DNA from: Malacoraja senta
Taxonomy: Eukaryota
NCBI GenBank assembly: GCA_038087875.1
Contig: CM075990.1
Location: 9,736,001-9,800,000, forward strand
Direction: 5' to 3'
DNA length: 64,000 bases
Each line of letters begins with the position of its first letter. Position 1 is the stretch's first letter. Positions 5,201 to 64,000 of the stretch are shown in pieces. Under the pieces are notes generated by a model that was not told the origin of the DNA, ran no database searches, and saw only the letters and a program-made list of their open reading frames with translations. Both the position numbers and the translations under genes were made by a program.

Positions 5201-8200
5201 CATGACGTATTGCAGACGACTTTATTAAGGCTCACAAATGTACCCAAAACCTGTGTATAAAATCATGAGAGGAATAGATCAGGTAGATCAGAGTCTCTTG
5301 CCCATAGTAGGTGAATCGGGGACCAGAGGTTTAACGTGAAGGGAAAAGATTTAATAGGAATCTGAGAGGTAACTTTTTCACACAAAGGGTGGTGGGTGTA
5401 TGGAAGAAGCTGCCAAAGTTGAGGCAGGGAATATCCCTACATTTAAGAAACAGACAGGCACATGGATAGGACAGGTTTGGAGGGATATGGACCAAATGCG
5501 GGCAGGTGGGACTAGTGCAGCTGGGACATGTAGGCTGGTGTGGGCAAGTTGGGCCGATGGGCCTGTTTCCACACTGTATCACTCTATGACACTAAAACAT
5601 AAAATGGGGATATTGGAAAGGTGATGGAATGGTGAAAAATAAGTGGTGGACAGAATTCACTTTCAACAATTGGAATGTGTACATATTGATTAAAAAAATA
5701 CATATAATTAGAATTGTGCATGATGTGGAAGAGCTGTGAGATTTTAGTTTTGGATGACAAAACTAAAAAGCAGAGTATGTGATCTGGGTGCCAAATCTAA
5801 GATGTTTGAAAAATGGAGAGAGCACAATGCAGCTGACGGATGCTGTTTATATGACAAAATGCAAATGTAAAAAGACATGGATACTTGTGATTGATTGGGA
5901 TAGAACAGAGATTATAGGGTGATTTATCCAAGATGTTTAAATTTATGAAGAAATAGTACAAAAAAGATAAAAACAGATTATTTTCAGCGGTTGATTTGGA
6001 TAAAATGAGAGAGTCATAGATTTAAGATTAAATCCAGGGATTAAGAAATGGAACAGAATAAATATTTTATTTTACACAAGGATCAGAAGTCTGCGATTGA
6101 AGCAGTGTGCACTGGCATTACATAAGTGATTAAAAGGATATATAAATATAACTACCACACAGAATTTGGGCATACTGATTATAGAGTATATTTTCTTCAC
6201 TGCTTCTTTCAATATTAGTTCATACAATAACTAGCTTAGTTAGTTCGGCCCGTTGACCCTATGCTTCTCCCACAACCTTTTTGTTAATTGCAATGAGGCT
6301 TGTTGTCCACTTGCCCACAAGAATCACCCACCATATGTCACACCCTCAAACCCCTGCCCACTACAAGCACACCGAAAGCAGTGCACAATGAGCCTTCCCC
6401 ATTAGCAAGTCTCAGGCCCAATAGGATGTGATGGTGTCCTTCCCTCTCTCCTTCTTCCCTCTCTCCCTCTTCCCTCTCTCCCTCTTTCCTCCCGCTCTCT
6501 TCTCTCTCGCCCTCTCGTTCTTTTCTCTCTCGCCCTCACCTCCCTGCTTTTCTCTTCCTCTATTCCCGCCCAATCCGTCCCTTGCCTCTTATTCTCTGGC
6601 TGTATAACCAGGGTTGCACCTGCCTTAACTCCAATTGCTTCTTGAGTGTACCCTGATCCCAAAGGATCCCAATGCACGTTGTTTGACCCTCATCACCTAC
6701 CCAGGTTTTAATTGGAATAGAATAGCATTGTCTAATACATGATGAAGCTTAATCTCCCCATTTCAGGAAATAAATTTATTTACTTGTCAGCGTGTCTGCT
6801 GTCCTGCAGAGCCTTTGTTGCCTTTCATGGGAACCAATTCCAGTCTCTTTGTCTCTTTGTTTAGTAATCAAGCAATTCGAATGATGGAAAGACGTGAGAA
6901 ACCGACGCCTGACATGTTTGGAGAGCTTCTGCAGAATGCAAGCACAATGGGTGATCTTAGGAACTGTCCGGTATGTGTCAATTCACTCTTGTTTAACATT
7001 AGTTATGCTGTCTTAAATTCAAAGGAATTCTATACTTGGATGTCTGTACCTTAACGATGCAGGTGATAATAGTTCTAAATTCACCCTTCTCATCATGCTT
7101 CTATTTCCCAAAACTCCTACGATGCAAAGTAATTTTTTTAGTTCTGTGGATTATAGGATGAATAACAAGTCTGTGAGTGGTGGTTTCCTTCTGCAGAATT
7201 GATTGAAAATTAGTTGCTTGTCCTTTATGGTTGGTTGGACAGATCTGATCAAATCAGTGATCAAAATATTCCATTTTTCGCCCGGGGAAATTCAGTTCAA
7301 TGGTTCTGCACTGCAGAACGACATCCAGTTGATTAGCCTGCACCTTTAGTGTCTTACTTTTCTTTGCTTAAGAGCAAGATCATTTTTTAAGTACATGGGA
7401 CAAAAATGAACAAAGAATGTTTAAAAATAAAAATATGTCCAGAGAATTATTGTTTTGTAATATAGTTTAATCAATTTCAGATGATCTTGTTTGCTTGCAT
7501 CACAGTATCTTTGCTTTGTTACTGTGCTATTATAAAATCTGTTCAAAACTCAATTAAATGCAAGTAGGTGCTCCTTTGTGTTAAAACTGTCCAGCTCCAT
7601 GGTGATATTTGCTTCCATTGGAGGACAGAATGAGAATGTGAATAGAATCTCAATGACTGCAGTTGATTGTTGGGAGTGAAAAGTTCAGCCGTGGCTGCAA
7701 ACCATTTCCGTCTGCTGCTTGGACCAAAGTGGAAGAGTGATGATAAAAGAAATAGGACCTGACCTATTAATTTTGTTCAGTTTTACTGAGGTGGTTTCAG
7801 TATCCAAATGCAGTTTTAGTACTGGAAAATTATACATGTATTATCCTTGTGGGAAAAGTGTTGTTTTTTATTTACTTTTCAGTCTAATTTTAAACAATCT
7901 TTAAATAACTGGGGAGCTTCCTTTTTTGAATAAGATATTCATTATCAATTTTTCAAAAGTATTAAGATTTTTCTGAAATAACTTTGCAAACCATTTGAAA
8001 AATGTATTTAAAAGTGATCCTTTAAGTTTCAGATATCTCACTTGTTTTCTTTTCTCTCATTTCTGATATCTCTCTTACATTAAAAAAAATTGATGCTGGT
8101 CTGGGAGTCAGTTTGATACTAAATACACTTCAGACTAAAGTTTATATTCTGCTCGTCAGTGATCGGAATATTCCATTTTTGGCAGATACAGCGCAAAAAC

Positions 8201-11200
8201 AGGCCCTTTGGCCCACGAATTCCACGCCAGCCAGCGATCACCGTGTACACTAACCTGCACACACTAGGGCCCATTTTACAACTTACCGATGCCAATTAAC
8301 CTACAAACCTGTAAGTCTGGAAGGAATCCAGAGCACCTGGAGGAAACGCAGTCATAGGGAGAACGTACAGACAGCATCCGTAATCAGGATCGAACCCAGG
8401 TCTCTGGCACTATTAGGCAACAACTCTGCCGTTGCCCCACTGTGCCACCGACTTATGGCATATGATGGAGACCTTGCTTTAGATCATGCTAGCTGGGGGT
8501 GTCGGAAGATTTCTTGATATATATTTTTATGGACATTGAAAGAAATCCAAAATGTGTGAATAAATTTGCGGTTACCTAAGTGGATGCCAAACCCTGAAAA
8601 TTGTGTGAACATTAGAAAAATTGCAGATGCTGGAAATCTAAGCTAAAGCCAGAACATGCTGGAAATACTCAGTAGGTCAGGTTTCAGGTCAAAGCGCCTT
8701 CATTAGAACTCTCTTTCTCATTCCACCGGATGCTGCCTGACCTGCTGAATGTTTTTAGCATTTTCTGTTTATAAATGTGAAATTAGTGTTTTGCATTCAA
8801 TTGCTCCTAACTGCTAGTCAATAATTGCCATTAATTAATTAGAAAGGTTATTTAAAAAAGTCATGTCTATATCCATTTCCTGTTGAACATGTCTATGGCA
8901 TATCATGATGAACAATATCCTATCAATGTTTAAGAAGGAACTGCAGATGCTGGAAAATCAAAGGTAGACAAAAATACTGGAGAAACTCAGCGGGTGAGGC
9001 AGCATCTATGGAGCAAAGGAAATAGGCAACGTTTCGGGCCGAGACCCTTCTTCAGACTGAAGAAGGGTCTCGACCGCTGAGTTTCTCCAGCTTTTTGGCT
9101 AATATCCTATCAATGATCACAGTGACCAGATCTGTAGAAGTTGCAAATTTAGCTATTAAATGTTTCAGACTTAAAGTTGGAGCTCTTTTCCATTTTTTGC
9201 TCCGTTACAATGATAAACTTAAATCTACAAAATGTTGCGTTGGCTTTTAACACGCTGCATAAATCGCTAGCAAACAAAACATTGGGATAATATAAGATGG
9301 GCGGCCAGGAGATGTGCCAATACTGTGAGATGTGGGAATTTGTCGACACCATTGATGTAGATGGTGTAGATGATCCCTACAGCTGCAGTAAGTGTTTGAA
9401 GCTAGCAGAACTCGAGCTCCGCATTGATGAGCTGGAGACCCAACTTCATACGCTGCGGTGCATCAGGGAGGGGAGTATTACCTGGATGTTTTGTGCCAGG
9501 GGATGGTCACACCGACCAGTTTAACTAATTCAGTAGTTAGTGAGCAGGGAAAGGAAGGTGTGGCCATAAGCGAGGCAGGTAGGGGGAACCAGGAGGAGAT
9601 GCGGCAGGAGCCACAGCCCTTGTCCCTGACGAGCATGACCGAGGCTCTTACTCAATGTGAGGACGGGATCAGGGGCTGTGGGAGGGATGAGCAACCTGGC
9701 TGCAGCACCGTGGATCAGGGGGCCATTCAAGAGGGGGGAGTTAGAAGAAATGCCGTGGTGATAGGGGATAGTATTATTCGGGGGGTAGATAAGGTTCTCT
9801 GCGGCCAGCAGAACATGTCCCGAAGGCTGTGTTGCCTACCCGGTGCTAGGGTTAAGGATATCTCTGCGATGCTGGAGAGAAATTTGCAGAGTGAGGGGGA
9901 GGATCCAGTGGTCGTGGTCCATGTGGGGACCAATGACATAGGAAGGACGAGGAAGGAGGATCTGCTGAACGAGTTTGAGCAGTTAGGGAATAAATTAAAA
10001 AGCAGAACCTCGAGGGTACTGATCTCCGGATTGCTACCTGAGCCACGGGCCAAATCGGCGAGGGTACGAAAAGTTAAAAAGCTGAATGCGTGGCTCAAAG
10101 ACTGGTGTGGGAAAAATGGGTTTGGTTTCTTGGGCCACTGGCACCAGTACTGGGACAGGGGGGATCTGTTCTGTAAGGACGGACTTCACCTGAACGGTGC
10201 TGGGACTGGGGTCCTGGCAAATCATATAACTAGGGCAGTAGAGAGGTCTTTAAACTAAGTAGCGGGGGGGAGGTATCAAGGGGGGTAATAACGGCAGGGG
10301 TAGAGGAAATAGAGCAGGGTATCAGTGGGGAAACGGAAAATCAAAATGTGACAGGAGGATCCAGAATGTGTGAAGATAAAGCTCTAGATGTAAAAGGGGC
10401 AAAAACAGAAAGGAAGGGTAGTAAAAATCATCTGAAAGTGCTGTATCTAAATGCACGGAGTATTCGAAATAAGATAAATGAATTAACGGTGCAATTAAGT
10501 ACATATAGTTATGATATCGTGGCCATTACGGAGACATGGCTGCAAGGGGATCAGGATTGGGAGTTAAATATAGAGGGGTACTCGGGCCCTTTTAATAAGG
10601 GAGGGAATAACGGCAATAGAGAGGAAGGATATTGCGTTGAAGGATCAGGATAGTGAAACATCTTGGGTACAGATAGAGAATAACAAGGGGAAAAAAACAC
10701 TAGTGGGTGTAATTTATAGACCTCCAAATAGCTGTGACGCTGTTAGTCAGAACATAAATCTGCAAATAGTTGACGCATGTAAAAAGGGAACTGCTGTAAT
10801 CATGGGGGACTTCAATTTTCATATTAATTGGGCAAACCAAACTGGGCAGGGTAGACTAGAGGAAGAGTTTATAGAATGTATTAGAGACGGGTTCCTAGAA
10901 CAGTATGTCACAGAACCGACAAGGAGGGAGGCAATCTTGGATCTGGTCCTGTGTAATGAAGCAGGATTAATTAAAAATGTCATAGTTAGGGACTCGTTGG
11001 GAACAAGTGACCACAATATGGTCGAATTCCATATTCAAATAGAAGGGGAGCAGGTTGAAACTCAGGCTAGGGTACTGAGTCTAAATAAGGGGGATTATGA
11101 AGGTATGAGGACTGAGCTGATCAAAGTTGACTGGGATAGCAGACTCAAGAATAAGACGGTACATGAGCAGTGGTGTACGTTTAAGGATCTACTGTATAAC

Positions 11201-14200
11201 CTTCAAGAAAAATTTATTCCTATGAAGAAAAAAAGGGGTAAGGGAAAGAACAGTCAGCCATGGCTCAGTAAAACTATAAAGGATAGTATTCAGCTGAAGG
11301 CAAGGGCATATAAGGTAGCTAGAGATAGTGGGAGGGTAGAGGATTGGGAAGCATTTAAAGGTCAGCAAAAAATAACTAAGAGATTAATTAAGACGGGGAA
11401 AATAGACTATGAAAGGAATTTAGCGAACAACATAAAAACTAATAGTAAGAGTTTTTATAGCTATATAAAAAGAAAAAGGGTGGCTAAGGTGAACGTTGGT
11501 CCATTGGAGGGTGAGACTGGAGAGTTGTTGGTGGGGAACATGGAAATGGCAAAGGCATTAAACGAGTATTTTGTATCAGTCTTCACCATAGAAGACACAA
11601 AAAATATTCCAACGCTGGATAAACAGGGGGCGGTAGGAATGGAGGAGCTAAATACTATTAAGATCACCAAGGAGGTGGTATTAGGGAAATTAATGAGACT
11701 GAAGGAGGATAAATCCCCTGGGCCTGATGGATTACATCCAAGGGTCTTGAGGGAGATAGCGGTGGGGATTGTGGATGCATTGGTGATAATTTTCCAAAAC
11801 TCCCTGGAGGCAGGAACGGTCCCAGTGGATTGGAAAATGGCCAATGTAACACCTATATTTAAAAAAGGAAGTAAACAGAAGGCGGGTAACTATAGACCGG
11901 TTAGTCTAACATCGGTGGTGGGTAAAATGTTAGAGACAATTATTAAAGAAACACTAACGGGGCACTTGGATAAACATGACTTCATCGGACAGAACCAGCA
12001 TGGTTTTGTGAAGGGGAAGTCCTGTTTAACGAATCTGCTCGAATTCTTTGAGGAAGTAACAACCCGGGTGGATAAAGGGGAACCGGTGGATGTGGTATAC
12101 TTGGACTTCCAAAAGGCTTTTGACAAGGTGCCACATAAGAGACTATTGCTAAAAATAAAAAATTATGGGATTGGGGGTAATATATTAGCATGGGTAGAGG
12201 ATTGGCTAACAAATAGGAAGCAGAGAGTGGGGATAAATGGTTCATACTCGGGATGGCAACCGGTAACTAGCGGGGTTCCGCAAGGGTCGGTGCTGGGACC
12301 CCAGTTGTTCACAATTTATATAAATGATTTGGAGGAGGGAACCAAGTGTAATATATCAAAATTTGCGGACGATACAAAAATGGGAGGAAAAGTAGGGGAT
12401 GAGGAGGATAGGAAGAGTTTGCAAAAGGATATAGATAAGCTAGGTGAGTGGGCAACAACTTGGCAGATGAAATTTAATACTAATAAATGTGAAGTCATTC
12501 ACTTTGGGAAAAAAAATGATAGGGCAAGTTATTTTCTAAATGAGGTGGAGCTGCGTTGTAATGCAACGCAAAGGGATCTAGGGGTAGTAGTACATGAATC
12601 ACTAAAAGTTAGTATGCAGGTGCAGCAAGCAATCAGGAAGGCCAATGGAGTTTTGGCCTTTATTGCTAGGGGGATTGAGTATAAAAACACGGAGGTCTTG
12701 CTGCAGCTGTACACAGTATTAGTGAGACCACATTTGGAATACTGTGTACAGTTCTGGGGTCCATACTTAAGAAAGGATGTACTGGCCCTGGAGGCAGTGC
12801 AGCGAAGGTTTACAAGATTAATTCCTGCAATGAGGGGATTGACATATGAGGAAAGGTTAAGTAGGCTGGAACTCTACTCTTTGGAGTTTAGAAGAATGAG
12901 AGGCGATCTCATTGAAACATATAAGATCGTGAGGGGCCTTGATCGGGTGGATGCACCGAGGATGTTCCCAATGATCGGGGAAACTAGAACTAGGGGACAT
13001 AGTTGTAGAATAAGAGGGGGCTCTTTTAAAACTGAGATGAGGAAGAACTTCTTCACCCAGAGGGTGGTTAATTTATGGAATTCACTGCCCCAGGGAGCAG
13101 TGGAAGCAGAAACATTAAATATATTTAAGTCTAAAATAGATGTTTTTTTAGCTGCCAAGGGGATAAGGGGCTACGGGGAGAGGGCAGGGATATGGACCTA
13201 GGTATGGTTAGTATAGTAAGACCTGAGTGATCTCCTGGACAAGTGTCGATCGCCTGGATTGGGGTCGGAGAGGAATTTCCCGGATTTTTTTCCCGAATTG
13301 GACCTGGGTTTTTATCCGGTTTTTTGCCTCCCCCAGGAGATCACGCGGTTCTTGGGGTGGAGAGGGGTGATAGCAATATAAAGGGGAGGGTAGTGTCTTG
13401 TGTTCTGTGTCTTGTGTCTACTGTTTGTGGGTAAGGGTGTCTGTTTAGTGTTCAGCCATGAGCGAATGGCGGTGCGGGCTCGATGGGCCTGGTGGTCTAC
13501 TCTCGCACCTACTTTCTATGTTTCTATGTTTCTATATAACCTATAACACTTGAGATAGCTTTTATTACTTGCTTACATAAGTCCAGTATATTGTGAAGTA
13601 CAGAAAACAAACAAATAACAAATTTGCATTGAAAAGCTAAAAACTGCAGATGCTAGCAATCTGAAATAAAAGCAGAGCTTAAATTTATAGTTCATTTCAA
13701 TGTTTATATTTTTTGATTTTTGCAATTATGTAAGTTTTCCAAGTATTCTGTATCTGTAATATTTTTTTAATTGCACAGAGTGTGGAATACTCATCTTTTA
13801 TTAATGCAAGTTACTACAGATGTATTGTTAATTAGTCTGATTATTTTTAATTTTTCTTCAAGCTTCACAAATGAAACACCACCAATGGAGTTTCTGGCTG
13901 GAGATTAAAAGCAAGTTTGGCAGGCTGACTATTTTCTGCATTCCCCTCCCTCAGTCAGACAGGGATACAATCCCATTTATTACACTCAGTTGACTTGGCA
14001 AATTAAATGTTGAACATGGCTCTTTACTGGTTTCGTAACTCTGTTCTTTACTAAGTTGTTGGAGTACTTTATTTTAACATTATTTATTATATCAGTTGTT
14101 TAAGCAGAACATTACTTAACTATCTTTAATTGATTTAATCCAAAAATTAATGAGTTTGCAGAGGGGAAACTGGAAATGATATTTTTCTTTGACCATGTTC

Positions 14201-17200
14201 CTGTTCATGCCTGTTCATTGTCATTTGTCCTTGATTGATGTGATTGGGAACTCACCATATGACTTCATTGAATTTGGCAGCTGACTGCATTGATGCTGCA
14301 CCTGTTGAGTACAATGCTGTGCTACGTGTCGTGTTATATAAGCTTTCATCTGCAGTTAGAACTGCACTTTGAGATTTCATTGCCTACTGCATTACTAGGT
14401 AGTTTTGTCAGTATCATTAAAATAATTTATTTTAATAACAATCTAATTTTCTTTACAGAGCAACTGTGGTGAGAAGATTAGAATCCGTAAAGTATTGATG
14501 AACTCTCCTGAGATAATCACTATTGGTCTGGTCTGGGACTCGGATCATTCTGATCTTGCCGAAGATGTTATTCACAGTCTTGGAACATGCCTCAAACTTG
14601 GAGATGTAAGATGGTTATCAGTGTTATTGCTGAATGTAAATGAAATGCAATACCTGTGACGTATGCACTTTGCAAAATGAAGTAAGAGCAATATGCCAGC
14701 AGTACAAGATGCTCATATGAAATAAAAAATAAGTGGTGATAAGAGACTTAAAATAGTCAAACTTCCACGACAGGGCATTGGAATTGTTAACTTATTTGTA
14801 ATACCGGGTCTCACAAAGAAGGTAGTAAGTGAATTTAAGATATTTTGGTTATAATTTTCCAAAACTCTCCAAACTCAAATTTTTTACTGTAGATATTGAA
14901 GAAGGGAGAGTCAAACTTGGCAAAATATGTTTTATATGTAGTGAGTAAATTACCCGAATTCTAGGACAAGTAAGTACGAACAATGAGAATCGATGTGCAT
15001 GAAATAAGTGGACCATGTTTGTCTTAAGAATGCCTAAAGGCCAGTCGCCCAATAGTTTTTTTAACATCTGAAGTAATGGACTTCCAGACGAAGATCCAAC
15101 CTCGGAGATTATCAAAAAATAAAGGTTCATGGAATTCAACATAACTTTGTTGACTGGTTGGGGGTGAGATATAGCAATTAAAAAGAAAGAAAGAATACTC
15201 TGGATGTGACAAGTGCCACATTGCCTAAGTATTAAGTATTAAACATTTTGAAAGAGTATTAATGACATGGATGAAAGAGAAGAAAGTTATATGTTGTGGT
15301 GTGCAATGACAGAGACTGTAAGCTGCATAGATGGGAGCAGCAAGTTACAAAGGCACAAGCTAATTAGTGAATGTGGAGTTCACTGTGGAGAAGTATAAGA
15401 AACACGAACCGGAATATTTTGGTAATGATGGATCTGTTTGTCTGAGCTACAGTAGTCTTTTGGCAACAGGAGGCTTCAAAACATTGGGTGAAATAGTGAA
15501 TCCATTTGATGCATCAGTTATTTGCCAAAATTCCCTGCATCACATTTGTAAAATATTATGCACTGCTGTGAGTTGGCGTTTGATGTAGGAATTACTAAAG
15601 GCGAAAATTCAGCTAACATGGAAAGAGTTGGAACAGTGAGATTTACTGATGCATAAAATTTGGATTTAGCGTGAGGTTTGCATCTCAAGCTGTTTCACTT
15701 TTCTTTTCAAATTTCAATTCGGTATTTGGAAAAAGAGTTATTGTATTCAGTTATTTTGCACGCAGTTGCACATATTTGTTCTTGCCGTTGCATTAATGAT
15801 GGTATGTGACATGGATCTGAAACTTGTAAGTCTGGAATTGCATGAGACTTCTCTTGGAGCTCTCTTCAGGTGGAATTTCGAAATAAATGATAAATTAATA
15901 AAATAAAATCACACCTGTAGACATGGTAATTATTCCCTTTTAGTTGTTAGTGTGGTTTTCTTGTGTATATTTTCTAGAGGCCATGTCAGTTAACCTGTAT
16001 TGGCTGAAAACTAATGAAAAACTGAAATATAATTAATTATACACTGCCCTGTATACCAAGTGATCTTTATGCTGTTGGATTCGCTGTAAAATCACACATA
16101 AGCTCAACACTTATATCTTACCCTATAATGTCAGCCCACTCAATCAACTTCCATCAAAGTTTAAGTCATTCATTCAAACATATTATTATGAAGTGAAACA
16201 CAAAGTACTGAAGAAACCCAACGGTTCAGGCAGCATCTGTGGAAGTATAGGCAGTATAGCTGATGTTTTGGGTTTTAACCAGAAGGGTCCTGACCTGAAA
16301 CGTTGCCTACCCATTCCCTCCACAGATGCTGCCTGACCCGCTGACTTACTCCAGCACGTTATGTTTTACTAAAGATTCCAACATCTGCAGTTCCATGTGT
16401 CTCCATATTAAGATGAATCTTTGGAAGCGCTAGCATTTCAGCCATTCCAATGATAGGTTCTGGACAGAAACCCATTAAAAGTCTTAGATTTACTTAGTGA
16501 CGGTTGGCATTGCAGTTGTCATGACGCTCCGTGGCTGGATTCTCCATGAATGGTACCAGTAGAATCCAGTCTTGCTGAGATTCCCTAGCATTGCACTTGG
16601 AAAATCACCCTTTGGTTCAAATACAGGCCAGTCATGGAATAGGATCAGAGACCACATTCATCTTTGTAGATTAGGAAACAAAGAGCAAGGTGAATTATCA
16701 AAATTAATTTACATTAGTTTACTGTTTTAGTGTGTTTTGAATTAACCTTATTTTTAAAAAATGTAATTATTTGCTTCATTTTCATAGTTTTTAAAATGTT
16801 AGAATATATAAAAGGTACAAATATCAATTAGTGGCTCTTGCACAGGACAAGGACTTACCCTTATATTTGCTTGTGCTAAAAGCTGCCAAACTGTGTGGAC
16901 CAGGCCTTTTTACAATGTCGGGCTTTATCGCTGCGAGGATCTTGCTGCCTGATTCCATGTTAAAGCAGTCAGCAAAATCGGCCCTTCACATCTGAGGCAG
17001 GGTGAGACCAGAAAGACCCCAGTTCTTTAAGGTTTCATTACGATTGATAAAAGAACCAGTGTAAACAACACCGAAGATGGTGATATCTTTAGAATTAAAC
17101 TAGATGTTAACTAGAAAGCTGCCTCTGTTTTTGTGGGGATTGTTGTGGCTTTTAAGACACTTGAAAAACAATGCTATACCAAAGATAACAAAAACATAAT

Positions 17201-32500: not shown

Positions 32501-35500
32501 CCTCCATGACAGGTATGCTCCTTTGAATACCGTTGTGGGGGAAATCTAGCCAGGAGAGCAGCAGTCTTCCAGTCTTCGGTGTAAACAGACTGTGATCAAT
32601 TTTTTCGATAATTACAAAGGAAAAGTTTAGTCCGAATTAATGTAGGCATACTATAGACAGGTGAACTTTAGATGAAGAAATAAGGAAATATCGGAAAAAT
32701 TAAACAAATATTTTGTGGAAAAAGACACCAAATATCATCCAGAAATAATGAAGAATGATAGGTCTAAAGTGAATGAAGAGCTCAAATAAATCAGCATTAG
32801 CAAAACAGATATTGGAAAAAATTAATGGAATTAAACCAATAAATCCCCAGAGTCTGAAGAAGGGTCTCGACCCGAAACGTCACCTATTCCTTCGCTCCAT
32901 AAATGCTGCCTCACCCGCTGAGTTTCTCCAGCATTTTTGTCTACCTTCGATTTTCCAGCATCTGCAGTTCTTTTTTAAACACTCCCCAGAACACAATCAC
33001 TTGAATCCAGTGCACTGGTTATCATATTCCAATATTCTGTAGACTATGGAACAGTTCCCACAGAATGGGAGACAAAGTAACCCCATGATTTAAGTAGCTC
33101 AGTTAACCTGACATGAATTAAGAATCTACTATCCAGGAATTGATCGCAAAGTTATTTAAATATTTGTTCTATTTCAGTTTGACGAACATCATTGGATCTC
33201 CTAACAGGTAGCAGTTGCCAGATCAGAATGCTTAATTTAATGCAGATTCAGATTTCTTTATTGTTATATACATCAGGGTGCAATGAAATTCCTGTTCACA
33301 TGATTATCACAGAGATGGCAGTATACATACAATAATGATAACTACAACAGAGTGCAAAAACATCAGAGTGGTGCAAGATTGTTGGGCAAAAAAAAATTGA
33401 AGTACAAAAGTGCACAAGAAAAGTACAATAATGGAATAGCTGAATGAGGTAAAGGTCAAAGTAAGAGCACATGGCAACACATCCAGGATGTGTGTAGAAA
33501 AGAGGTTCAGGAGTCTCAGCGTAGTGTGGAACAAGCTATTCCTAAGTCTGGACATCTGAGCTCTCAAGCACCTATTTTCTCTCAGAAGGTAGAGGAGAGA
33601 AAAGGGAATGGCCTGGGTGGCAGGTATCCTTGACGATACTTGGTATTGGTTTATTATTGTCAAGTGTACCAAGACACTGAAAAAACATTGTTTTCCAGTC
33701 AAATCATACCATACATGAATACATCAAGCCATTCACAAGTAGTGCAAAGAGAAAAATACCAGAGTACAGAATATAGCATTTTCCAGCTTTCCTGATGCAA
33801 CCCACCATAACGATGAACTGGGTGAAAGGAAGGAAGTAACAAACTAGACTGTGTTCATCACTCTCTGCAGGTTCAGGCATTCATGAGCACAGCATTTGTC
33901 ATATCAGGCTGAGATGAATCCCATCAAAATACTTTCTCTAGTGCTTCTATAGAACTAAGAGTGAATTGTCGTGAATTGCTGCTTTTGGGAAAAAACACTT
34001 GGCGGTTGAGACTCCTTTATTGAGGAGTCTAAACTTCCACAAATTCTCCAGTACCTAGGCTAAGAAATCTACTCTGGCATAAGTACAGCAAGCCCATTCA
34101 ATTGTTTGGCAAAGAGCAGCCAATAGAAGATAGTTTCCTATATTTCATTGAGATGATTTAAATGTATTTTATTGTTTTCTAATAATTTCACTTATTTAAA
34201 TTTGTAAGTTTTTAATTTTGAATGTTTATAAATGTAAGATATTTGTGAACAATTAATCTACGATGAAGCCGTGATAGAGTCACAATCATATAACGCGGAA
34301 AAAGTCCCTCAGCACAAATCGTTCATGCTGACCGGTTTTTATAGCTAAAATCATCCCATCAGCCTGCACTTGGCTCATATCCCTGTGAATATCTATACAC
34401 AAGCTTGGGTGTGTAAATTAATTTTTTGTCCAAGTAATTTTGAGGTTGGGGCTTCCCACATTGGCTTGAAGAGACCGTGCAACTCACTAGTCAGTTGATG
34501 ACCAGGTTTAAAGGGGAAGATATCCCTTGGCTCCAGCCCCTGATAAATTGGGTTTGACATCAAGCAATCAGACAGCACCCAACATGTCTTTAAACAGGCA
34601 CATTGAATGTATTACCCTTTGCATTGCAGCAGCTGAAGCATAAAGATGCAGTTTTAAATTGCTACTCCAGAAAGTTGAACATGAACATCCACACCACCAC
34701 TTCTTCTTCTTGCGTATGGCGTGCACAACCTAAAGTTGTAAGACAACTTGTTCTGTTTGATCTTCTGTTGTGCACACCAGGTTGATTGCATTCATTGAAA
34801 CAGGGTGGACCACTCCATTGAGTGAAGAATACTGTACTATGAAAGGTGGCAATTTTTTTTTTGCCGGGATATGTTGAAGTGTTTGGGTACTCTGCTCAAG
34901 TAGATTTAAAAGACCTCATGATATAATTTGGAACAAGAACAGGGCACTCTCAAGTTTTTTAAATTACTATTATCACTCAACTAATGTCAGTAAATGTCTG
35001 GCCATTGTTTCATTTTTATTTGTAGGATTGTGCTTGGTAGAAATTGGCTGCTATATTTTCATCATACTGCAATGAATTAATATGAAAAATCTTGTAAAGT
35101 TCCAAGGAATAATGAGCTTTTGAAGGGCTCTATAAATTCAGGTCTTTCTTTATACAGTCCCTTCTGCGCTAAATTCAGTTTCTTTTAGATCAGGATAGCA
35201 TTTTGCACAATTTATTTCACCAATATATCTTTCATTTTATCAAAAGGCAAATAGACTCATCTTGGATTAAATAATATTTCAGAAATGTCCTTTTTCAAGC
35301 TAGAAATAGAAGTGTAGTGCTATATATGCTACGATGAGCTCACTGAATGTTGCAGTTCTGTTTTGTACCGTCTATATACTTTGGGAAGCTTTCATGTCCC
35401 TGAATGGTATAAACATTGACCTTCAGTGTCTGATGGTTAATGTATTCCTGGAAGAGCAGTATAGCAGCTGTCTTTGACAAATGCTTGGTATAGTTGATGA

Positions 35501-38500: not shown

Positions 38501-41500
38501 CCACGCATTGTTAAGATTCTGCTGCATTATTACTCTGGTTATTACTCCAAAAGTGCAAAGATAGAATTGGTCCCTTTGTCTGCACTTGAATTAAATTTAT
38601 TATCCTGGAACAGCAAGAGGGAGCACATCTCTGATGGTTCCTTACAGATCTTGTGACTTTCTAATTTTGCAAATAAGAGGTCATTAAACCACATAATGGT
38701 TTACTCATTTAACATCGCCTGTACTTTTAAGGCTTCATAAACAGGTGGCTGGGTCTGAATTTAATTACAGTTTGGTGAGGGAAAGACATAGATTGGAATG
38801 TGATTATAAATTTCTCTCACCAGGTAAGCACTGCAGCTTGAAACTTTTAAGGCCCTCAAAGCTATAAAAAAGTGAATTTATAAATGTTCAATGCAAAACA
38901 TTTCGTTTGAAAGAATTAGTTCTTAATAAATGTTTGCCAGTGTTAAATTTTGATATTGCATTTTAATAAATGTTTAATTTAGTGCATGTGCAAAAAAAAA
39001 ACCCTGCTGTTGCTTCTGCAGGGAAGACTGACAAGTTTGAGAGATCATTGCAGGAGGTAGACTCTCTATTAGAACAGTCTTTCCGTCTTGAACAGAAGGA
39101 TGACTTGGCTGCAGCACTCAATCTCTGCAATGAAGCTGTGTGTAAGTAACCCTAACTGCCTCTGCTGCTCGCAGACTAAATGCTGTGCTAACCAGTTATG
39201 AAATCCTGCTCACTATAATCTGTTCTTCGCTTGGATAGAAACTGAACCTAAACCAGTTATTCTTTTTTTTTTCTTTATGTGCATGTCAAATTCCCAATTA
39301 GATAATCTACATGTGGAAAAGTTGTCTTGAAATCATTTCATGAATACTTTAAGGAGAATTTTGGTTTTATTTAATTGAGTATCTGGATTTTCAAATTTAA
39401 TATACATAATAAAGTCTTGTTCTTTTAATTGTTCAGAACTATGGAAAGCTATTTAAATAATGTTTATCCTAAAATGCTCTTTTATGAGAAACATTTTATG
39501 TTAACTTCTCATTTGGTTTAAATCAAGGAGGTGCAAAACTAATTTATTTTCTTAAAATATATTAACAATAATTAATCTGACTGGTAAGTTAAAACTTATG
39601 CTGTTTGGTACATTGAAAATACAGATTCTCAGTATTACAAATTAGCAGTTCATTTCACATTTCTTTCATGCTTTTGATCATTTCTATCTTTGAACATGCC
39701 TAATTTCACTGAAGAGTAATGTTTGTGTCACGCATTCACTTTAATTTGGCTTTTGCTCAGCTATGTGGAGTCATGTGTGTTCTTAATAAGATATGTGACT
39801 CATTAAGCATTTGATGTGACATTTGATGATTTTCTTTACAACCATCATTTTGTAATTAAAGCAATGCTGTTCCAAACACCGCTAACATTGCATCAGAGCA
39901 TTTGTGAGTTTCTCATACTTTTATAATTGCATGTTGTTTGAGTCTGCGTGTGCATTTTTTTCTGCTGTTTTGCATTTTAGCTAAACTAAGACTTGCTATG
40001 CATGAAGGCAGTGCCATCACACACAGCAGAGCCCTTGCTGATAAGAAGCTGCATATTTGCATGAAGAAGGTTCGAAGTCTGCAGGAGAGCATGCAACCAT
40101 CCACCCACTCCCCACCAACTGGGGACTCTGTGACTGAATGCAAAAGGTAGTATCCTTAGGATTAAGAGGGGGCAAAATGTCAGGTGAATTAGGTTTGAGC
40201 TTAAAGGAAGTCATCCTGTGAAATAAGACATAGAAAGTTAGCCTTAGTTAAGCAAAATATACAAAAACCACAACAGTAACATTTTTTCAAGATGCCATTT
40301 AAAAAGAGAAATTTGCAGAACTCCTGTGAAGTACTATGGCACTTGTACGAATTAAAGGAGGTTGCTTCTTTGAATCTAAAATTGTAATAAAAAAAAGATT
40401 AGTTGTGCATTCATATTTTTAAGTGATTTTAACAAAGGCTGCGTGGTGTAGGCCATTTCTTTGAGGTTTGTTATAATTTCTAATCCATTTAATCAAAATA
40501 TTTGCAAATGTTTTTTGAAATATGCATGGAGACTCCACAGTGAACAACTCCACTGTAGTTTTCATTTCTTCGTGAATTTTAACAAGAATTGATTTTAACC
40601 TTTTCCTCAGCAATTCCTTAGGTTTACTGCAAAATTACTCTTTTTGAAATAAATTGGATGCTGATATCAGATTTTAATGTGCAGTTTAATTAAACGTATT
40701 TGTTGGTGGAGATGTGCAAGCAATATGTGTGTTGTGTGTGGCCACTGTAAATTATTCACAATAAAATTTTGGAAGTAACACCATTCTTTATTTCAGTATG
40801 CAGGCTGGCCAGGTCCAAATACTGTTAGCATCAGAGAGAGTAATGGAACCCATCAGTGAGCCAGACCACAGGCCCAAACCTTCCCGAGCCCTGCCAGCCT
40901 CCCATCACCAGCTACAAGTCCAACATGCTACCCAGTTACACAGCCCTCACTCCGAATCGCATGGCCAAGCTTCTGCTACATTGACTTCTGAACTAAAATG
41001 GAACCAATCTGCCAGCTATACCAATGAGCTTCCGTCTTTCCACAAATGCAATTGGGTTCAAGGGGAAAAGGTGGAGGAGAAATGTGTAAGTGGTGCAGTG
41101 AATATGTGTCAGGTGAAAAATAATGATGAACCAATGGAAGAGTCACCGGACTGTTTCCCACACAATTACAAACTGAAAATGAACAAACATGGCTCCTTGC
41201 CTTTGCTTACTTCTGAATATGGAGACATAAGTCACACATTTTCCTCACCATCTCCCCACTGTCAGGTGTTGACACCAAGAGATGAAATAGATTTGTATCC
41301 AAAGATCACGCCTCATTCTCTGTATTTCAATTCAAGGCAACTTGAATTGAACACGACTGATACCAGTATATCTCCATCTACAATTTTGTCGTCCACGAAC
41401 TTGAAGTGGACCTCTGATCAATCTTCTACCCCTAAAGCAATTTTGAATTTGGAGTTCAACTCAAAGATTGAAGGTGCCCATTCACCAAAGATCAAGACAA

Positions 41501-44500
41501 CAGTTGATATGGGTAATGTACAGTCAACGACAGCACAGATTCAAAGATTAAATGCAACGCTGGGCCAGGGAAATGAAGATGTTAATTACAAAAGAGTGCA
41601 TTCCAATTCTCGGCCAAAGAAAATGGATCAGGAAGTATTGCAGCTACCTCTGAATAATAATCAACAGGTAGTGTTTCTTCAGAGCAAGGATCAGTTGGAC
41701 AGTGAAAAGTGGCCTATTGACAGCTTATATTCTTCCCAGGTTTCAGATGCACCATTAGATTGTAAAACTGAGGCACCTGCTCCTCTACCAGTACCTTCAT
41801 ACAGACCAAAGACAAATACTGTTGCAAGAGATCTGAGCTGCCATTCTGGTGCATCAGATTTTCTATCTGACCCTCCAACAGATGATACATGTGATCAAAA
41901 ATACCAACGTATTGTCCAGTCACTTTTCGGAGACACCTGTTTAAACAACAACTCTGGTCCGATTAGACAGCAGCATGAACATTCCACAAGTTCTTCTGTA
42001 CCTGTAGACCACTGGATTGATGATATAAGAAAACATTATGTGCCTCGGTCAGATTGCCGAAACAGTGAACAGCAACATCTGCATAATAAACAGCCCAGCC
42101 AAGAAAGTAACACACATGGTCATGGGCAACAAATGCAGCCGATTAATGCTAAAGATCAGGACATACAGCTGGAGTTTTCAGAGCTGGAATCCCTCTATCA
42201 AGCAAGTCTGCATGCTTCGGATAATAGGAGATACTTACCAGGTAGACAATTGGCAGAGAAAGTCACCAGGCAAAGTAGCATTAAACCAGGTAAGAAGATG
42301 CAACATGTAGTGAACAAAAAATATTGCTGCATAGTTTGTGGAAAGTGTGACATGAGTTTGGATGTACTGTTTATGGTATTCAGTAGCTAATGACCAATTA
42401 CCCAAGCATTATAAGTCTCATGTAGGGTCTGAGAATTGGTTTTCTGAGAAGGCACGAAAGCACGACAGTAGGAAAGATCTATTACTTTTCTTAATTACAG
42501 TAAAATTTGGATTAACAATTAAATCTCATTATTACTAGGTATCCTCCTGTCTGCTTCACTATTTTGGTGAGTTTGCAAATCGTTCAAATAGATCTGGACT
42601 GTGGTAAAGAAGATAAATTCTTGATTTTCTTGATTTTTATTCTCCACATTTAGTTTGACCGTCGTTCTACTTACTGGCCCCTATCATTTCCACCCTGTGT
42701 AGCGTGAACTGCTATCAATATACACTTCTTGCAAATACAAAGACCATCTTGTTTTCTTGCAAACTACTGCTTCATTTTTAAACTCTTTTGCCTCAAGTTG
42801 CTGAATATGTTGCCACTACCCAAATCCATATCCCCTTTTTATACCTGATTCAGTTTTAGCAATGATCAGCCATTTAGCATGCCATTTTGACCATGAGCAC
42901 AATTAATCACTTGTGCATCCTGGTCAGTCTGTATTTTCAAAAATGCCCAGTCAAATCTGCTTCGATCATTGCCTTTGAATCACTGTTCTTTTCTCATATC
43001 TTCAATTAATTTCCTATTGATTGTAATACACCATCTTGCAAAGGTGACCGTTCCTGTCTTTGAACTGTTATTTTGGAATCCCTGAGGGTTGACCTTTGAT
43101 CAGCTGTATCTTAACCCTTGATGACATTATTCATTAACATGTACATATCTTACTATGTGCATTATTTTGGTAATATTTGTAAGATAAAAACAGTGGTTGA
43201 ATGGCAGAGTAGACTTGATGGGCCGAATTCTGTTCCTATCACATATGAACATGAACAGTACATCCTTGAAGTACCTAGCCAATCCGCACGTATGAAGAGT
43301 GAAACAGTTAATGCTACTTCCTTCACAGGTGCAGATTGACGTTCTATGCATTTCCAGTATTTTTGTCATTATTCCAGATGCCCTGAATATGTAGTTTATG
43401 GCTTTGCAATTGTTTGTTTTTTTTCTCTCTGCTTCTATCTTTAACACATAATGCCACCATTAGTTTAGTTTGATTTATTTCTGCTAGTTGGTTGTTTGTC
43501 CTTGAGTTTATAGAAAGGTTGTATTATAAGTAACGTATAACATGTACATCTTGGTAAAGGGGATAAAATGACCATTGCTTCAGTGGAATGATTTGAGTAC
43601 AGCAATTTATAATCTCGAATCGCTTAATAAAAATTGCAGAGTAGAATGAAGAAGTTTGGTGATCGTATGAGCTTAAACTGTTCCTTGGCCCACATAAAAC
43701 AATTTCTACTGCAGCTGCAAGTAAAGGACCCCTTTCCCACTGCTTCCTTCCTGGAATATCACCATCCTTCCCAGTCATACTCCCTGTTACCTTTACCTCC
43801 AGATCTTAACTGCATACATGACACATGTTGCCAATCCCCAGCTGTGGATGCACACCTGTCCACATTTCCAACCCTATCTCTGACATTACTATTGCATTTA
43901 TTTATCTTTTTTATCTAATTTCACATAGACTGGCAAACATTTATGTTACAGACTGACATTAGTCCACAGACTTCTTGTTGAGGAACACTAGAAAAGAGCA
44001 CAATTACCAGAGGACCTAGGACCTCCATTGAAATATCTGGGACCTTTTTAGGGGATGCAGTACTTTCATAATGAAGTTGTATGTTTTTTATGGTATAATA
44101 GATCATCCTTTGGAGGCCAATTTATTTAAAATCAATAATCTAACTACACTTGGATACTTTAAATAAAGGAAATGTTAATATTTCTGATGTGTGTGCCAAT
44201 AGTTTCTGCACAAAACGTTACAAGAAAACACTTCTCTCCGCCTGAAAGAGGGCGATCAAAGACTCCGACTGCAGAGATTGAGCGCAGTGCTTATCGAGCA
44301 GCTGTACCAGTGAGCACAAAGGTACGTGATAGCTTTGTAAGACACGGCACTTATTGTTCCTTACCTGTTATAAATTTCATTCTGAATTGAATTGAAGTTT
44401 AATCTGCTTTTAAATATGCAATGCGTTAGGTTCAACTATTTATGTTAAATTGTTGCTTTCTTTCAGGCTGTTCATGTTTAATGGTGCGAATAAATAGTGT

Positions 44501-47500
44501 ATTGGGATAAATTGTGCATATCTAACAGGTTAAAGTCTTCTGTTACCATTTTGAAAGATGTATCTTGATCTTTTAAGATAAAGTTTGATTTATCAAAATG
44601 TTTCCTCTGTCTTGCTTAATTGGGCAAATTAAAACACTGTACCAATCTTCTCGTGAAGAATCAGTGGAATAATCCAAATGAAATAAAAGTGGTTGCATCG
44701 TGGCTTGGTTTGGCAACGTGAGCGTCCAGGAGCGGAAAAGGCTGCAGAAAGTTGTAACCACTGCCCAGACCACCATCGGCTCTGACCTCCCCACCATCGA
44801 AGGGATCTATCGCAGTCGCTGCCTCAAAAAGGCAGCCAACATCATCAAGGACCCAAACCATCCTGGCCACGCACTCATCTCTCCGCTACCATCAGGCAGA
44901 AGGTACAGGAGCCTGAAATCTGTTACATCCAGGTTCAAGAACAGCTACTTCCCCACTGCCATCAGGCTATTAAACTCGCCAACAAACAGACTCTGAACTG
45001 TAACAGCCTATTGCACTTTATCTGCTTATTTATGTATATATTGAACTGAGCTGTTTAAGAAGGAACTGCAGATGCTGGAAAATCAAAGGTAGACAAAAGT
45101 GCTGGAGAAACTCAGCGGGTGCAGCAGCATCTATGGAGCGGAACTGTTCTGTACTTTTGCTCCCAATATTCTGTTGTGCTGCAGCAAGCAAGAATTTCAT
45201 TGTCCTATCTGGGACACATGACAATAAACTCTCTTGACTTGACTTGACTTGACTTGAAAATACTCAGCAAATCAAGCTGCATCTGTGGAGAGAGAAACAG
45301 ATTTAATGCTTCAGGTCAATGAACTCTCATGAAAAAATTGGAAATAAAGCTGTTTCTAATTAATGCATTTTAAGGCTGGTCGAGAAATAGCCATTGATGT
45401 TGAAGGAAAATGAGTCCAGGTGAAGAATATGTATGCATTTGTATCATTGGAAAGCAGCTAGTCAAATTAATTAGGGCATGAGTTAACAGATTTTAGAACT
45501 GTTCTTAAACTGTTGGACTGTTCTCCAGTTTTTACTTTAAAATGTATTTATTTGTACATCTCATTTTATAAGGTGCATTTCAATGAGTTTTCTCCAAGAG
45601 AAAACTTGGAAAATGACAGTTACAGTGCAGATAATTTCCGTCGTATTGCTCGCAGCCTGAGTGGAACCATCCTTGCTCACAGAGAGAATCCTGTGGTTAT
45701 TCCTCACAGTATCGTAAGTAAACCGTCCTGCGGCAACAAAGGCATAAAATGGCACTGAATTGGCCTTGAGTGAATTGAATACATTTTAACCAGTTTATTT
45801 CCTTTGTCTCCGTGAAATGTTTTTTCATTTTGTCATTGTTCGCTTATGTTGGAAGGAAACAACAAATGTGAGAAAACAAGTGGAGCCTCAAAACAGATCA
45901 GTCAGTTCCTCTTCATTGACCACGGCCAAAGGCCCCTCCCCTGATCCTCTTGTGTTAGCCTCCTACCCTCAACATCATCCCTTCCTACCACAACACCTCT
46001 CGTTTGATCCACTGCAGCCCAACATGTCTGGTGATGCAAACAGAGCTTCAGGTAATCCTGCTTGCACAAAATACTAACATTTACGTCTTTTTCAGTGTAC
46101 ATTTGTCCTAAAGTTTGTCTATAAAGCCCTTGTCTAGCTAATGCTAATTTCATATGGTACTATTTCACATATATATTAGTATTAAGATATCAAATTAGGA
46201 TGTGTTTAAACTGTTCACCGTGCTATTCGCGCATGTATTTTGCAACATAAGATTTGTTTGGTCATTTGCTGCCATTCAGCATATGCCAATAAATCGGAAA
46301 ATTGTATAATATTTGACAAGTTTGTGCCATTTATTTTTATTCTGTAGTAAGATTCAAAATGGATAAATAGCTGGAAACACACATGGCAGTCTAGCTGCGG
46401 ATTAAATCCAATGGATCATGAATGACTGCAGTGTTACAGCACACAGGGCAGCAAAGTAGCTCTACAGTTAGCGTTGCTGCCTCACAGATCTAAGATCCTG
46501 GGTTCAGTTGGAAATTCTGTGGTGATTCCCGTGTTCTGATATTATTTCAGCAAATGATTGGTTAGGACAGCCATGTAGAACATAGAACAGTATAGCACAG
46601 TAACAGGCCCTTCATCTCAGAATGTCTGTGGCCACTAAAAATAACCCTATCTGCCTGCCTGTGATCCATATTCCTCTCTTCCCTGCATGTTCATGTGCCT
46701 TTTAAACGTCATTATCATGACTTCTTCCAGCACCCGCCCTGGTAGTGTGTTCCAGGCACCTGCCAATTTCTGTGTAACAATAAACTTGCCCTACATATGT
46801 CTATTAAACTCTCCCCCCCCCATCTTAAACATTTGCATTCCAGTGTTTGATATTTTTACCCCATCTATGTTTCTCATAATTTTATGAAATTCTATCACAT
46901 CTCCTCTTAGCTCCCCTTAGTTGTTGATACCCTTTTGAAAATAATCTAGATTTCTTCAACCTCTCATTATAGCAGATACTCTCTAATCCAGGCGATATCC
47001 TGGTGAACCTCCTGTACACCCTTTTCAAAGCCTCCACATCCTTCCTTTAATGGGAAAACTAGAACTTGCATGCAATACACCTAATGTGTTCAAACCAAAG
47101 TTTTATAAAGATGCAACATGACTTCCTATACTGCTTCAGTGGATGAGTTCTTCAGTGTGACAATCTCCCTGATTAGCAATGTGATTCCTCTTTTATCTCC
47201 TCTGTCATGTTTGAAATATAGTAACCGTCAAAGGCCAGAATATCACAATTCGATGCACTAATCCAGGGTCTAAATTCATCTACCTTACCCATAACATTCC
47301 TTGCATTGCAACGTGTGCACTTCAGCCCATCAGTGCAAACGGTATTTATTTCATCAATGTCTCTATTAGTTATGGTGAATGACTGACGAATCAGTCTGAA
47401 GAATTGGAGTAGAATGTTGTTATTGCTGTTTTGATCTGATCAATATAATGATCTAATTTACGTGTTTTTTTGTCGAAAATAGACAGGAACGTCGAAAAAC

Positions 47501-51761: not shown

Positions 51762-53143
51762 AATGCTGGAGAAACTCAGCGGGTGAGGCAGCATCTATGG
51801 AGTGAAGGAATAGGCGACGTTTTGGGTCGAGACCCTTCTTCAGACTGATGTCGGTGGGGGGGGGGGGAGAAAGGAAGAGGCGAAGGCTGTGGGAGAGCTG
51901 GGAAGGGGAGGGGAAGGAAAGAGAAAGCAAGGACTATCTGAAATTGGAGAAGTCAATGTTCATACCGCTGGGGTGTAAACTACCCAAGCAAAATATGAGG
52001 TGCTGCTCCTCTAATTTGCAGTGGAACTCACTCTGGCCATGGAGGATGCCCAGGACAGAAAAGTCAGATTCGGAAAGGGAGGGGGAATTGAAGTGCTGAG
52101 CCAACGGGAGATCAGTTTTGTTATTGCAAACTGAGCATAGTTATTGGGCGAAGCGATCGCCAAGCCTGCGCTTGGTCTCACTGATGTAGAGCAGTTTACA
52201 CCTGGAACAGCGGATGCAGTAGATGAGGTTGGAGGAGGTGCAGGTGAACCTCTGCCTCACCTGGAAAGACTGCTTGGGTCCTTGGATGGAGTCGAGGGGG
52301 GAGGTAAAACGACAAGTGTAGCATTTCCTGCGGTTACAAGGGAAAGTACCAGGGAAGGGCGTGGTTTGGGTGGGAAGGGACGAATTGACCAGGGAGTTAC
52401 GGAGGGTAGGGTCTCTACGGAAAGCAGAAAGGGGAGGAGATGGGAAGATGTGGCCAGTGGTGGGAACCCGTTGGAGGTGGCGAAAATGTCGGAGGATTAT
52501 GTGTTGTATGCGATGGCTGGTAGGGTGGAAGGTGAGGACAAGGGGGACTCTGTCCTTGTTACGAGGGGGGGATGGGGAGTGAGAGCGGAGCTACGTGATA
52601 CAGAGGAGACCCTGGTGAAAGCGTCATCAATAGTCGAAGAGGGGAACCCCCGTTCCCTAAAGAATGAGGACATCTCCAATGCCCTGGTTTGGAACACCTC
52701 ATCCTGGGTGCAGATGCGGCGTAGACGGAGGAATTGGGAGTAAGGGATAGAGTCCTTACAAGAAGTAGGGTGGGAAGAAGTGTAGTCCAGATAGCCATGG
52801 GAGTCAGTGGGTTTATAGTAGATGTTGGTCAGTAGTCTGTTACCTGCGATGGAGATGGTGAGGTCTAGAAACGGGAGGGAGATGTCGGAAATGGTCCAGG
52901 TGAATTTGAGTGCTAGATGGAAGTTAGTGGTGAAGTGGATGAAGTCAGTGAGTTCTGTATGGGTGCAGGAGGTAGCACCAATGCTGTCGTCAATGTAGCG
53001 GAGCTAGAGTTCGGGGATAGGGCCACGGTATGCCTCGAACAAGGATTGTTCGATGTACCCTACAAAGAGGAAGGCATAGCTGGGGCCCATGCGCGTCCTT
53101 TGACTCCTCCCATTTCCACCAAATCCAAGGCGTAGCTATGGGG
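51762..53143 (-). mobile_element. 5'-truncated Penelope-like element (RT C-terminal half + GIY-YIG), degenerate, with a 48-bp 5' inversion
   Basis: Minus strand: TRMGPSYAFLFVGYIE..., LRYIDDSIG (RT), FTCTSSNLIYCIRCSRCKLLYISETKRRLGDRF (GIY-YIG), then the terminal repeat; stops and frameshifts present. Confidence 0.88.
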
Positions 53144-63890: not shown

Positions 63891-64000
63891 TTCAGTTCAA
63901 TTTAGTTTATTGCCACGTGAAACGCTTTTTATTGCGTGCTAACCAGTCAGTGGAAAGACAATACATCAGTCCATTTACAGTGCACAGAGAAGGGAATCCT

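Follow-up and report, generated by a model that had tools for sequence, protein, structure and literature searches.

The CR1 retrotransposon found in the 64,000-nt stretch of Malacoraja senta DNA analysed here (hereafter the window) carries a slippery heptamer, TTTAAAC, immediately ahead of the stop codon of its ORF1, and comparison with related elements makes it highly probable that esterase-type CR1 elements produce their ORF2 product through programmed -1 frameshifting, as an ORF1-ORF2 fusion. Most ribosomes would terminate ORF1 at a Leu-Asn-stop end, while a minority would slip back one base on U_UUA_AAC into the ORF2 frame and, much as for Gag-Pol, synthesize a fusion of ORF1, linker, endonuclease and reverse transcriptase (RT). 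Frameshifting of this kind would set a high ORF1:ORF2 ratio, and the fusion would keep the RT together with its own ORF1 protein and with the RNA of origin. We infer the slip, its efficiency and the fusion protein from sequence comparisons. The -1 slippery junction itself is real and deeply conserved; it is new for CR1 in the literature searched, the mechanism being known from other systems.

The CR1 element and its ORF1-ORF2 junction

The element is a CR1-type LINE on the plus strand, extending from ~9297 to 13535 within an intron of a USP54-like gene (an exon at ~14459-14606 matches PDB 8C61). Its features, in window coordinates, are as follows.

9297 to 10258, plus strand: CR1 ORF1, with a Cys-rich N-terminus, a linker and an SGNH/GDSL esterase (~9740-10255), ending Ser-Leu-Asn-stop
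10249 to 10255, plus strand: slippery heptamer U_UUA_AAC (TTTAAAC), in X_XXY_YYZ phase with ORF1
10256 to 10258, plus strand: ORF1 stop abutting the heptamer, TAA here, TAG in the related loci L001, L038 and L046 and TGA in a lizard consensus
10249 to 10431, plus strand: region from the heptamer to the endonuclease start
10266 to 10270, plus strand: conserved core of five G (G5) at +11 to +15 past the heptamer, within the G7 run 10264-10270; candidate linear stimulator
10280 to 10300, plus strand: further G runs (G6 and G4), in the window family only and not in L001, L046 or L038
10346 to 10351, plus strand: out-of-frame ATG-TGA start-stop
10366 to 10368, plus strand: first in-frame ORF2 ATG, 107 nt past the ORF1 stop, with A at -3
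10432 to 13201, plus strand: ORF2 core, APE endonuclease and RT (Pfam PF14529, PF00078)
13202 to 13535, plus strand: 3' UTR with terminal (TTTCTATG)n-type repeats, which end near 13535

A microsatellite-repeat 3' end in place of poly(A) is a defining trait of CR1, and the 3' end of the element consists of short TTTCTATG repeats, not poly(A). The closest named homologues come from rays and sharks, its esterase groups with shark and ray proteins, and its junction is like those of the sequences labelled CR1 in part of a published consensus set (PMC13343379), a study that describes CR1-group elements as the dominant retrotransposons in most vertebrates. The ORF1 esterase was recognized by Pfam (PF13472, E 6.8e-14) and contains GDS, GTND and DGLH blocks; its nearest solved structure is the ZfL2-1 ORF1 esterase 4C1B, which is both a sequence match (E 1.2e-28) and the top fold match.

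The copy in the window is dead. Its ORF1 frame is disrupted near 9470 (by alignment against the intact relative P0001) and its ORF2 frame near 10584, where ~11 codons are missing; this second lesion is copy-specific, since three of four runs of contigs continue with different sequence there. The family, by contrast, is young and abundant, with intact proteins at 97-98% identity (P0001 and P0121, the latter an ORF2 at 98%) and with 449 and 1590 contigs matching 501 bases in two runs. Within the 64,000 nt of the window no second full-length CR1 was found, only 3' fragments.

ORF1 ends TCT TTA AAC TAA, and the sequence read directly confirms that the heptamer stands in slippery phase right before the stop, as an earlier note on this DNA had stated. 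That note had also followed the -1 frame open from 10234 into the endonuclease; the frame has no stop up to 10650 and reads FKLSSGG...MCED.... Its coordinates for the G runs (G7 10264-10270, G6 10280-10285 and G4 10297-10300) and its in-frame ATG at 10366 are correct too, but the APE domain had been placed at 10348, where the sequence is still linker, the endonuclease beginning at ~10432. TTTAAAC has 39 matches in the window (24 on the plus and 15 on the minus strand), and a stop follows directly in one of the 24 plus-strand cases. Base shuffling leaves the 65-codon linker without a stop in 1.1% of cases, and the part of it ahead of ATG 10366 in 12%. With so common a heptamer, and with 12% of shuffles open as far as the ATG, one copy is therefore weak evidence and the case rests on conservation. 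Across four runs of contigs no variant of the heptamer reached a frequency of at least 2%, which says little about selection because contigs lose rare variants and the family is young.

Conservation of the junction in DNA and protein

Four genomic junctions from three independent families were compared, namely the window, L001, and the pair L038 and L046, which belong to one family. None of the last three was located via the heptamer: a search with the esterase yielded L001 (43% identity) and one with ORF2 yielded L038 and L046 (43% identity), and the latter two are apparently invertebrate DNA inside prokaryote assemblies. All three read T_TTA_AAC_TAG. The longest invariant block of the alignment of the four loci is TTTAAACTA, followed by G5, and the sequence flanking the TTTAAACTA block diverges freely. 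Conservation at the junction exceeds, at the nucleotide level, that of the encoded amino acids, the probability of the codon choice given the residues being ~0.03 for the window, ~0.03 for L001 and ~0.1 for L038 (each with its own codon use), this last value being rough, as six stops in the codon table behind it stem from a segment that is partly out of frame. The -1 frame of L001 and L046 runs from the heptamer into the endonuclease without a stop, and no ATG precedes that domain; the first in-frame ATG of both lies inside the endonuclease, past the conserved NARS motif. Relative to its sister L046, L038 has a one-base indel directly after the G run. The earlier note had named as contrary evidence a heptamer or phase that is not conserved in the family and frequent stops between the heptamer and the APE start. 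Heptamer and phase are kept in four of four genomic junctions (three families), the frame is open in three of four, L038 with its indel being the fourth, and no such contrary evidence was found at the sequence level.

The ORF2 scan of prokaryote assemblies returned 29 loci, apparently eukaryotic contamination, and the junction is present in two of them (L038 and L046). In the locus L049 the ORFs overlap in the same -1 relation without TTTAAAC, and in-phase A_AAA_AAC and C_CCA_AAA are present; the remaining prokaryote-assembly loci are fragments, single-ORF elements or other LINE types. The metagenome scan gave a CR1 junction of the window type in one of 24 loci among the matches listed. The viral contigs scanned contained no CR1 junction, and plasmid and phage records yielded no match.

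Published consensus sequences extend the comparison across vertebrates. The supplement of Stuart et al. 2026 (PMC13343379), of which the first 400 bases per consensus were used and rows were counted by eye, contains 21 junction rows under 12 species labels of vertebrates; the heptamer is complete in 20, and the remaining row is cut within it. These rows span a chimaera, sharks, rays, bowfin, a teleost, coelacanth, a frog, crocodilians and a lizard, and the stop after the heptamer varies among TAA, TAG and TGA. The count is circular for 17 of the 21 rows, which came from a search for the heptamer followed by TA (23 matches: 17 junctions, two in 5' UTRs and four not CR1); of the four rows from other anchors, three have the whole heptamer and one is cut within it. 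A search of the same supplement anchored on the esterase gave seven matches, three of them CR1 rows, all with the heptamer. As a control, synonymous and variant junctions were searched for, covering some codon and stop combinations only, and none of the 16 matches in these consensus segments was a CR1 junction with a changed Leu or Asn codon; the sole CR1 match had its stop changed to TGA and its heptamer intact. The consensuses are missing columns, so reading frames are unreadable from them. The searchable part of the Suh 2015 supplement gave three matches, and the two listed are ORF2 3' ends, not junctions.

At the protein level, ORF1 products ending in Leu-Asn (LN) are found in sharks, rays, bony fish, coelacanth, frog, turtles and a lizard. 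They make up 49 of 120 listed homologues, and 42 of the 46 DGLHL-bearing proteins among the top 59 homologues. Among the best 150 representatives (50% identity), 101 have the DGLHL block, and of these 44 end in LN and 10 in GN, figures obtained with a profile biased toward LN, as it was built from the window protein and the 47 of the top 59 homologues with complete C-termini. The distance from DGLHL to the end is 26, 32 or 39 aa and LN is terminal at each length, so that LN tracks the stop and not the fold.

The heptamer would also constrain the residue ahead of LN, which must have a U-ending codon if X is U. Residues with no such codon (E, K, Q, M and W) precede LN in one of 81 distinct tails, versus 103 of 567 residues at positions -4 to -10 (p = 7e-6, a value inflated by the relatedness of the sequences). 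Where proteins end in GN, the residue ahead of it can be encoded with a final G in 10 of 10 cases (17 of 70 background residues cannot), and in a lineage with an invariant internal Lys-Asn (KN) and a variable tail the preceding residue has an A-ending codon in 15 of 15 (27 of 75 background residues have none). Judged from protein, the GN and KN lineages would fit the heptamers G_GGA_AAC and A_AAA_AAC; DNA of these two families was searched for and none was found. According to the part consulted of a review on frameshifting, U_UUA_AAC, G_GGA_AAC and A_AAA_AAC are among the heptamers most prone to shifting on mammalian ribosomes (Atkins 2016, PMC5009743). In the KN lineage 2-14 further codons precede the stop, so the stop need not adjoin the site.

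A tree of the esterase core, tail excluded (163 sequences, midpoint root; 99 of 259 proteins had been dropped for having no block, being too short or long-tailed, or being duplicates) contains a clade with support of 0.94 in which 109 of 133 members have LN, GN, KN or FF, against 0 of 30 outside it. A search for fused proteins found two, one of them informative, the stingray gene model P0124, which continues from ORF1 via FKL to the endonuclease. The terminal Leu closes a predicted helix and is aligned to a Leu of a GDSL structure from a bacterium; it may also be structural, packing in the last helix.

Alternative readings and candidate stimulators

Termination at the ORF1 stop followed by re-initiation, either of the UAAUG type of SART1 or of the AUG-independent type of mammalian L1, would produce a separate ORF2 protein, with the LN-stop end retained for reasons to do with the protein or with termination, and with the G run helping to hold the ribosome. 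Such a process has been shown for SART1 (as stated in PMC3708506) and is favoured for L1 (as stated in PMC5009743), and ATG 10366 is in frame and usable, with a similar start in the catshark consensus ScyCan_CR1-20. Moreover, TAATG overlaps the stop in three of the 21 consensus rows, all from sharks (ScyCan_CR1-1a, SquAca_CR1-17a and SquAca_CR1-6c), which is the SART1 signature. We nevertheless consider re-initiation improbable as the general explanation. It leaves unexplained the fixed synonymous codons, the preceding U and the exchange of LN, GN and KN; the fold does not need LN, since the ZfL2-1-like esterases outside the clade do without it. An AUG overlapping or adjoining the ORF1 stop is absent in the window, L001, L046 and L038, ATG 10366 has no equivalent ahead of the endonuclease in L001 or L046, and in the window a scanning, re-initiating ribosome would reach the ATG-TGA at 10346 first. 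Frameshifting and re-initiation could coexist in some lineages.

Under frameshifting, the question is what might stimulate the slip. The G5 core is present at +11 to +15 in four of four genomic loci, where it forms the invariant alignment columns G87-G91. In the consensus rows, which are gap-prone and were counted by eye over the segments used, an exact G5 at +11 to +15 appears in seven of 21, and a run of at least four G within +4 to +14 in 17 of 21. In the -1 frame the run holds the third position of a Gly codon constant, and for this reason a signal at the RNA level looks likely. Structural stimulators are placed 5-9 nt downstream of shift sites, with a minority, linear or bound by protein, at 11-15 nt, as summarized in the available part of the review (Atkins 2016, PMC5009743), which gives the linear stimulator of PRRSV, CCCANCUCC, at 11 nt. 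By analogy, the CR1 spacing appears to fit this minority, and we infer that the G5 run is less likely to act as a quadruplex than as a stimulator, linear or bound by protein, at the mRNA entry channel. A local hairpin was rejected as a conserved stimulator: the fold downstream of the heptamer has z = +0.7 and no Rfam match, and a search for a shared stem-loop or pseudoknot 5-9 nt downstream, made without explicit pseudoknot modelling, gave weak folds that are not common to the four loci.

The earlier note had proposed that a G-quadruplex formed by the downstream G runs stimulates a -1 shift leading to an esterase-endonuclease-RT fusion. The shift and the fusion are strongly supported by the comparisons described above, but the quadruplex finds no support, and we regard this sub-case of frameshifting as unlikely. 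In the window the stretch has the highest G4Hunter score of the element (2.2) and matches a long-loop G3 pattern, and synthetic quadruplexes are able to stimulate frameshifting (reported in PMC5009743). The relatives, however, retain a single G run (G4Hunter 1.16 and 1.48), the additional runs being family-specific, and four conserved G tracts are wanting, as the long-loop pattern occurs in the window and in none of L001, L046 and L038. Neither the G3/N1-7 quadruplex pattern (in +1 to +100 at the four loci) nor a quadruplex predicted by ViennaRNA with the quadruplex option was found, and no natural quadruplex stimulator was known as of 2016 according to the same part of the review (PMC5009743). 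The G-quadruplex was rejected as a conserved stimulator.

Another proposal, a weak lead that we judge doubtful, is that the G run pairs over a long range with a pyrimidine tract in the 3' UTR of its own element, in which case only full-length RNA would yield ORF2. The best predicted downstream partner of the junction G run does lie in the 3' UTR, both in the window (13326-13334) and in L046/L038, and the UTR belonging to each junction is a better partner than that of the other family. Shuffled sequences, however, reach the observed pairing energy in 7 and 5 of 100 cases for the window, 1 and 2 of 100 for L038 and 13 and 5 of 200 for L046; the L046 junction pairs even better with the ORF2 of the window, a non-cognate target; part of the 3' UTR target in the window is occupied by a local UTR helix; and the query segment was picked post hoc, with two families testable.

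That the motif is a DNA or RNA signal unrelated to decoding (in splicing, as an internal promoter or in polymerase slippage, for example) or an accident frozen by descent would accord with evidence that consists of sequence conservation, and with the presence of TTTAAACTA in two spurdog CR1 consensuses also within the 5' UTR, but it is very improbable for a motif that is phase-locked to ORF1 across tails of 26-39 aa, appears to alternate among known shift-prone heptamers and has no long homopolymer.

A broader proposal can be put forward tentatively, as one that we find possible but, taken as a whole, would not bet on. Esterase-type CR1 elements from invertebrates to reptiles may have kept a Gag-Pol-like -1 shift since before the vertebrates, with heptamers swapped between lineages, and in the LN lineages the five-G motif at +11 would be read by a trans-acting protein (the ORF1 protein or a host G-run binder) and not by an RNA fold. 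In that case ORF2 output would work as a regulated switch within vertebrate genomes, analogous to the PRRSV mechanism but with a G-rich motif.

Frameshifting in CR1 and in known systems

The ORFs of turtle CR1 were reportedly described as overlapping in a 1997 paper, so an early remark on frameshifting is possible. In the open-access literature, outside which the 1997 turtle and chicken CR1 papers fall, we found no proposal of frameshifting for CR1. The word 'frameshift' is absent from the main text of PMC13343379, PMC4120745, PMC3905857 and PMC3708506, and CR1 is unmentioned in the available part of the frameshifting review (PMC5009743). How LINEs translate ORF2 is described as unclear (in the part consulted of PMC3708506), and the conserved slippery site offers a precise and cheap test of it. 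If the frameshifting reading is true, the working CR1 enzyme would be the ORF1-ORF2 fusion, not an ORF2 annotated from its first AUG, which in L001 and L046 is an annotation that removes the first endonuclease motif; screens for intact CR1 would have to score the junction, and the esterase would travel with the RT.

Programmed -1 frameshifting is known from coronaviruses (U_UUA_AAC in IBV), retroviruses and animal LTR retrotransposons, as covered in the available part of the review (PMC5009743). The heptamer class and phase are the same there as in CR1, as is the arrangement of a structural gene in the 0 frame and a polymerase in the -1 frame; CR1 differs in that the host element is a LINE and no hairpin or pseudoknot is predicted 5-9 nt downstream. 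TRE5-A and TRE3-A of Dictyostelium are L1-clade non-LTR elements whose ORF2 is said in a review to need a -1 frameshift (PMC5911963). Like CR1 they are APE-RT LINEs with ORF2 in the -1 frame, a likeness drawn from that review's statement, but they belong to another clade and another kingdom and have no esterase ORF1. In Penelope-like elements, ORF1 is reported to be set apart by a frameshift with a pseudoknot (PMC8557442); these share with CR1 a non-LTR-type nature and a programmed frameshift ahead of the RT, and differ in RT class, in endonuclease and in having a pseudoknot as stimulator. For elements of Paramecium, a +1 shift or re-initiation is reported (PMC5405496). SART1 and mammalian L1, as described in the parts of those papers available, are like CR1 in having a bicistronic LINE mRNA and the problem of access to ORF2, some shark CR1 consensuses also having TAATG; they are unlike it in making a separate ORF2 protein, for which no slippery heptamer is needed, and most of the CR1 junctions compared have no overlap of stop and start.

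For the G5 run, the nearest parallels are the linear 3' stimulators of PRRSV (with nsp1beta/PCBP), Semliki Forest virus and Ty3, as listed in the same part of the review (PMC5009743). The PRRSV motif is C-rich, whereas that of CR1 is G-rich, and it acts mainly in -2 frameshifting; a protein binding the CR1 motif is hypothetical. Both, however, are short unstructured motifs beginning 11 nt past the shift site, and the G5 of CR1 has the form that characterizes the PRRSV and cardiovirus type, a short linear motif ~11-14 nt away. If its role is as proposed here, this structure-free G5 stimulator would be a further example from nature in that small class of frameshift signals.

Setting of the CR1 element within the host gene

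The CR1 of the window is intronic in a USP54-like gene and lies on the same strand as this gene. The features that surround it in the window, together with a predicted helix in its own 3' UTR, are as follows.

5253-5493, 46912-47046, 58659-58959 and 63746-63893: other CR1-like families, represented by four old fragments of their 3' ends
8927-9075: short interspersed repeat, directly upstream of the CR1
13228-13239 with 13333-13344: 12-bp helix in the CR1 3' UTR (region 13202-13450), from fold prediction
14459-14606, + strand: exon with a match to USP54 (inactive ubiquitin C-terminal hydrolase), PDB 8C61 at E 1e-26
40765-42390, + strand: long open frame of 541 aa
47452-48177, + strand: long open frame of 241 aa

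A Pfam scan of the two long frames gave nothing above the cut-off; they are probably large exons of the low-complexity C-terminal part of the host gene. The repeat upstream of the CR1 has relatives at 662-761, 32851-32981, 45052-45139 and 51762-51848, among others (about nine related pieces within the window). The 3' UTR is long in this CR1 family (334 nt), with the predicted helix preceding the terminal hairpin, and this region may be a lineage-specific insertion.

Animal elements under other database labels

Animal LINEs were located within prokaryote genome assemblies (loci L037-L065), and three CR1 ORF1 proteins (P0026, P0040 and P0064) carry database labels of Pseudomonas, a flatworm and a microsporidian. 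All of these look like host contamination.

Junctions and 2A-like motifs in other elements

The ORF1 of an invertebrate-type CR1 (L038:3668-4924) has, after its Cys-rich N-terminus and ahead of the esterase, a stretch that we take from its motif to be SH3-like.

Outside the junctions, two spurdog consensuses in the supplement of PMC13343379, SquAca_CR1-18 and SquAca_CR1-3, likewise have TTTAAACTA with G-rich sequence after it, in the 5' UTR.

In a different CR1-like element (L049:1063-1114), ORF1 and ORF2 overlap in the same -1 relation as in the window CR1, with A_AAA_AAC in phase 14 codons upstream of the ORF1 stop and no AUG ahead of the endonuclease motif. In other LINEs (L063:243-404 and the minus strand of L037 near 10150), the endonuclease is preceded by 2A-like DV/VE-x-NPGP/NHGP motifs, a type described as a recoding signal in PMC3708506.
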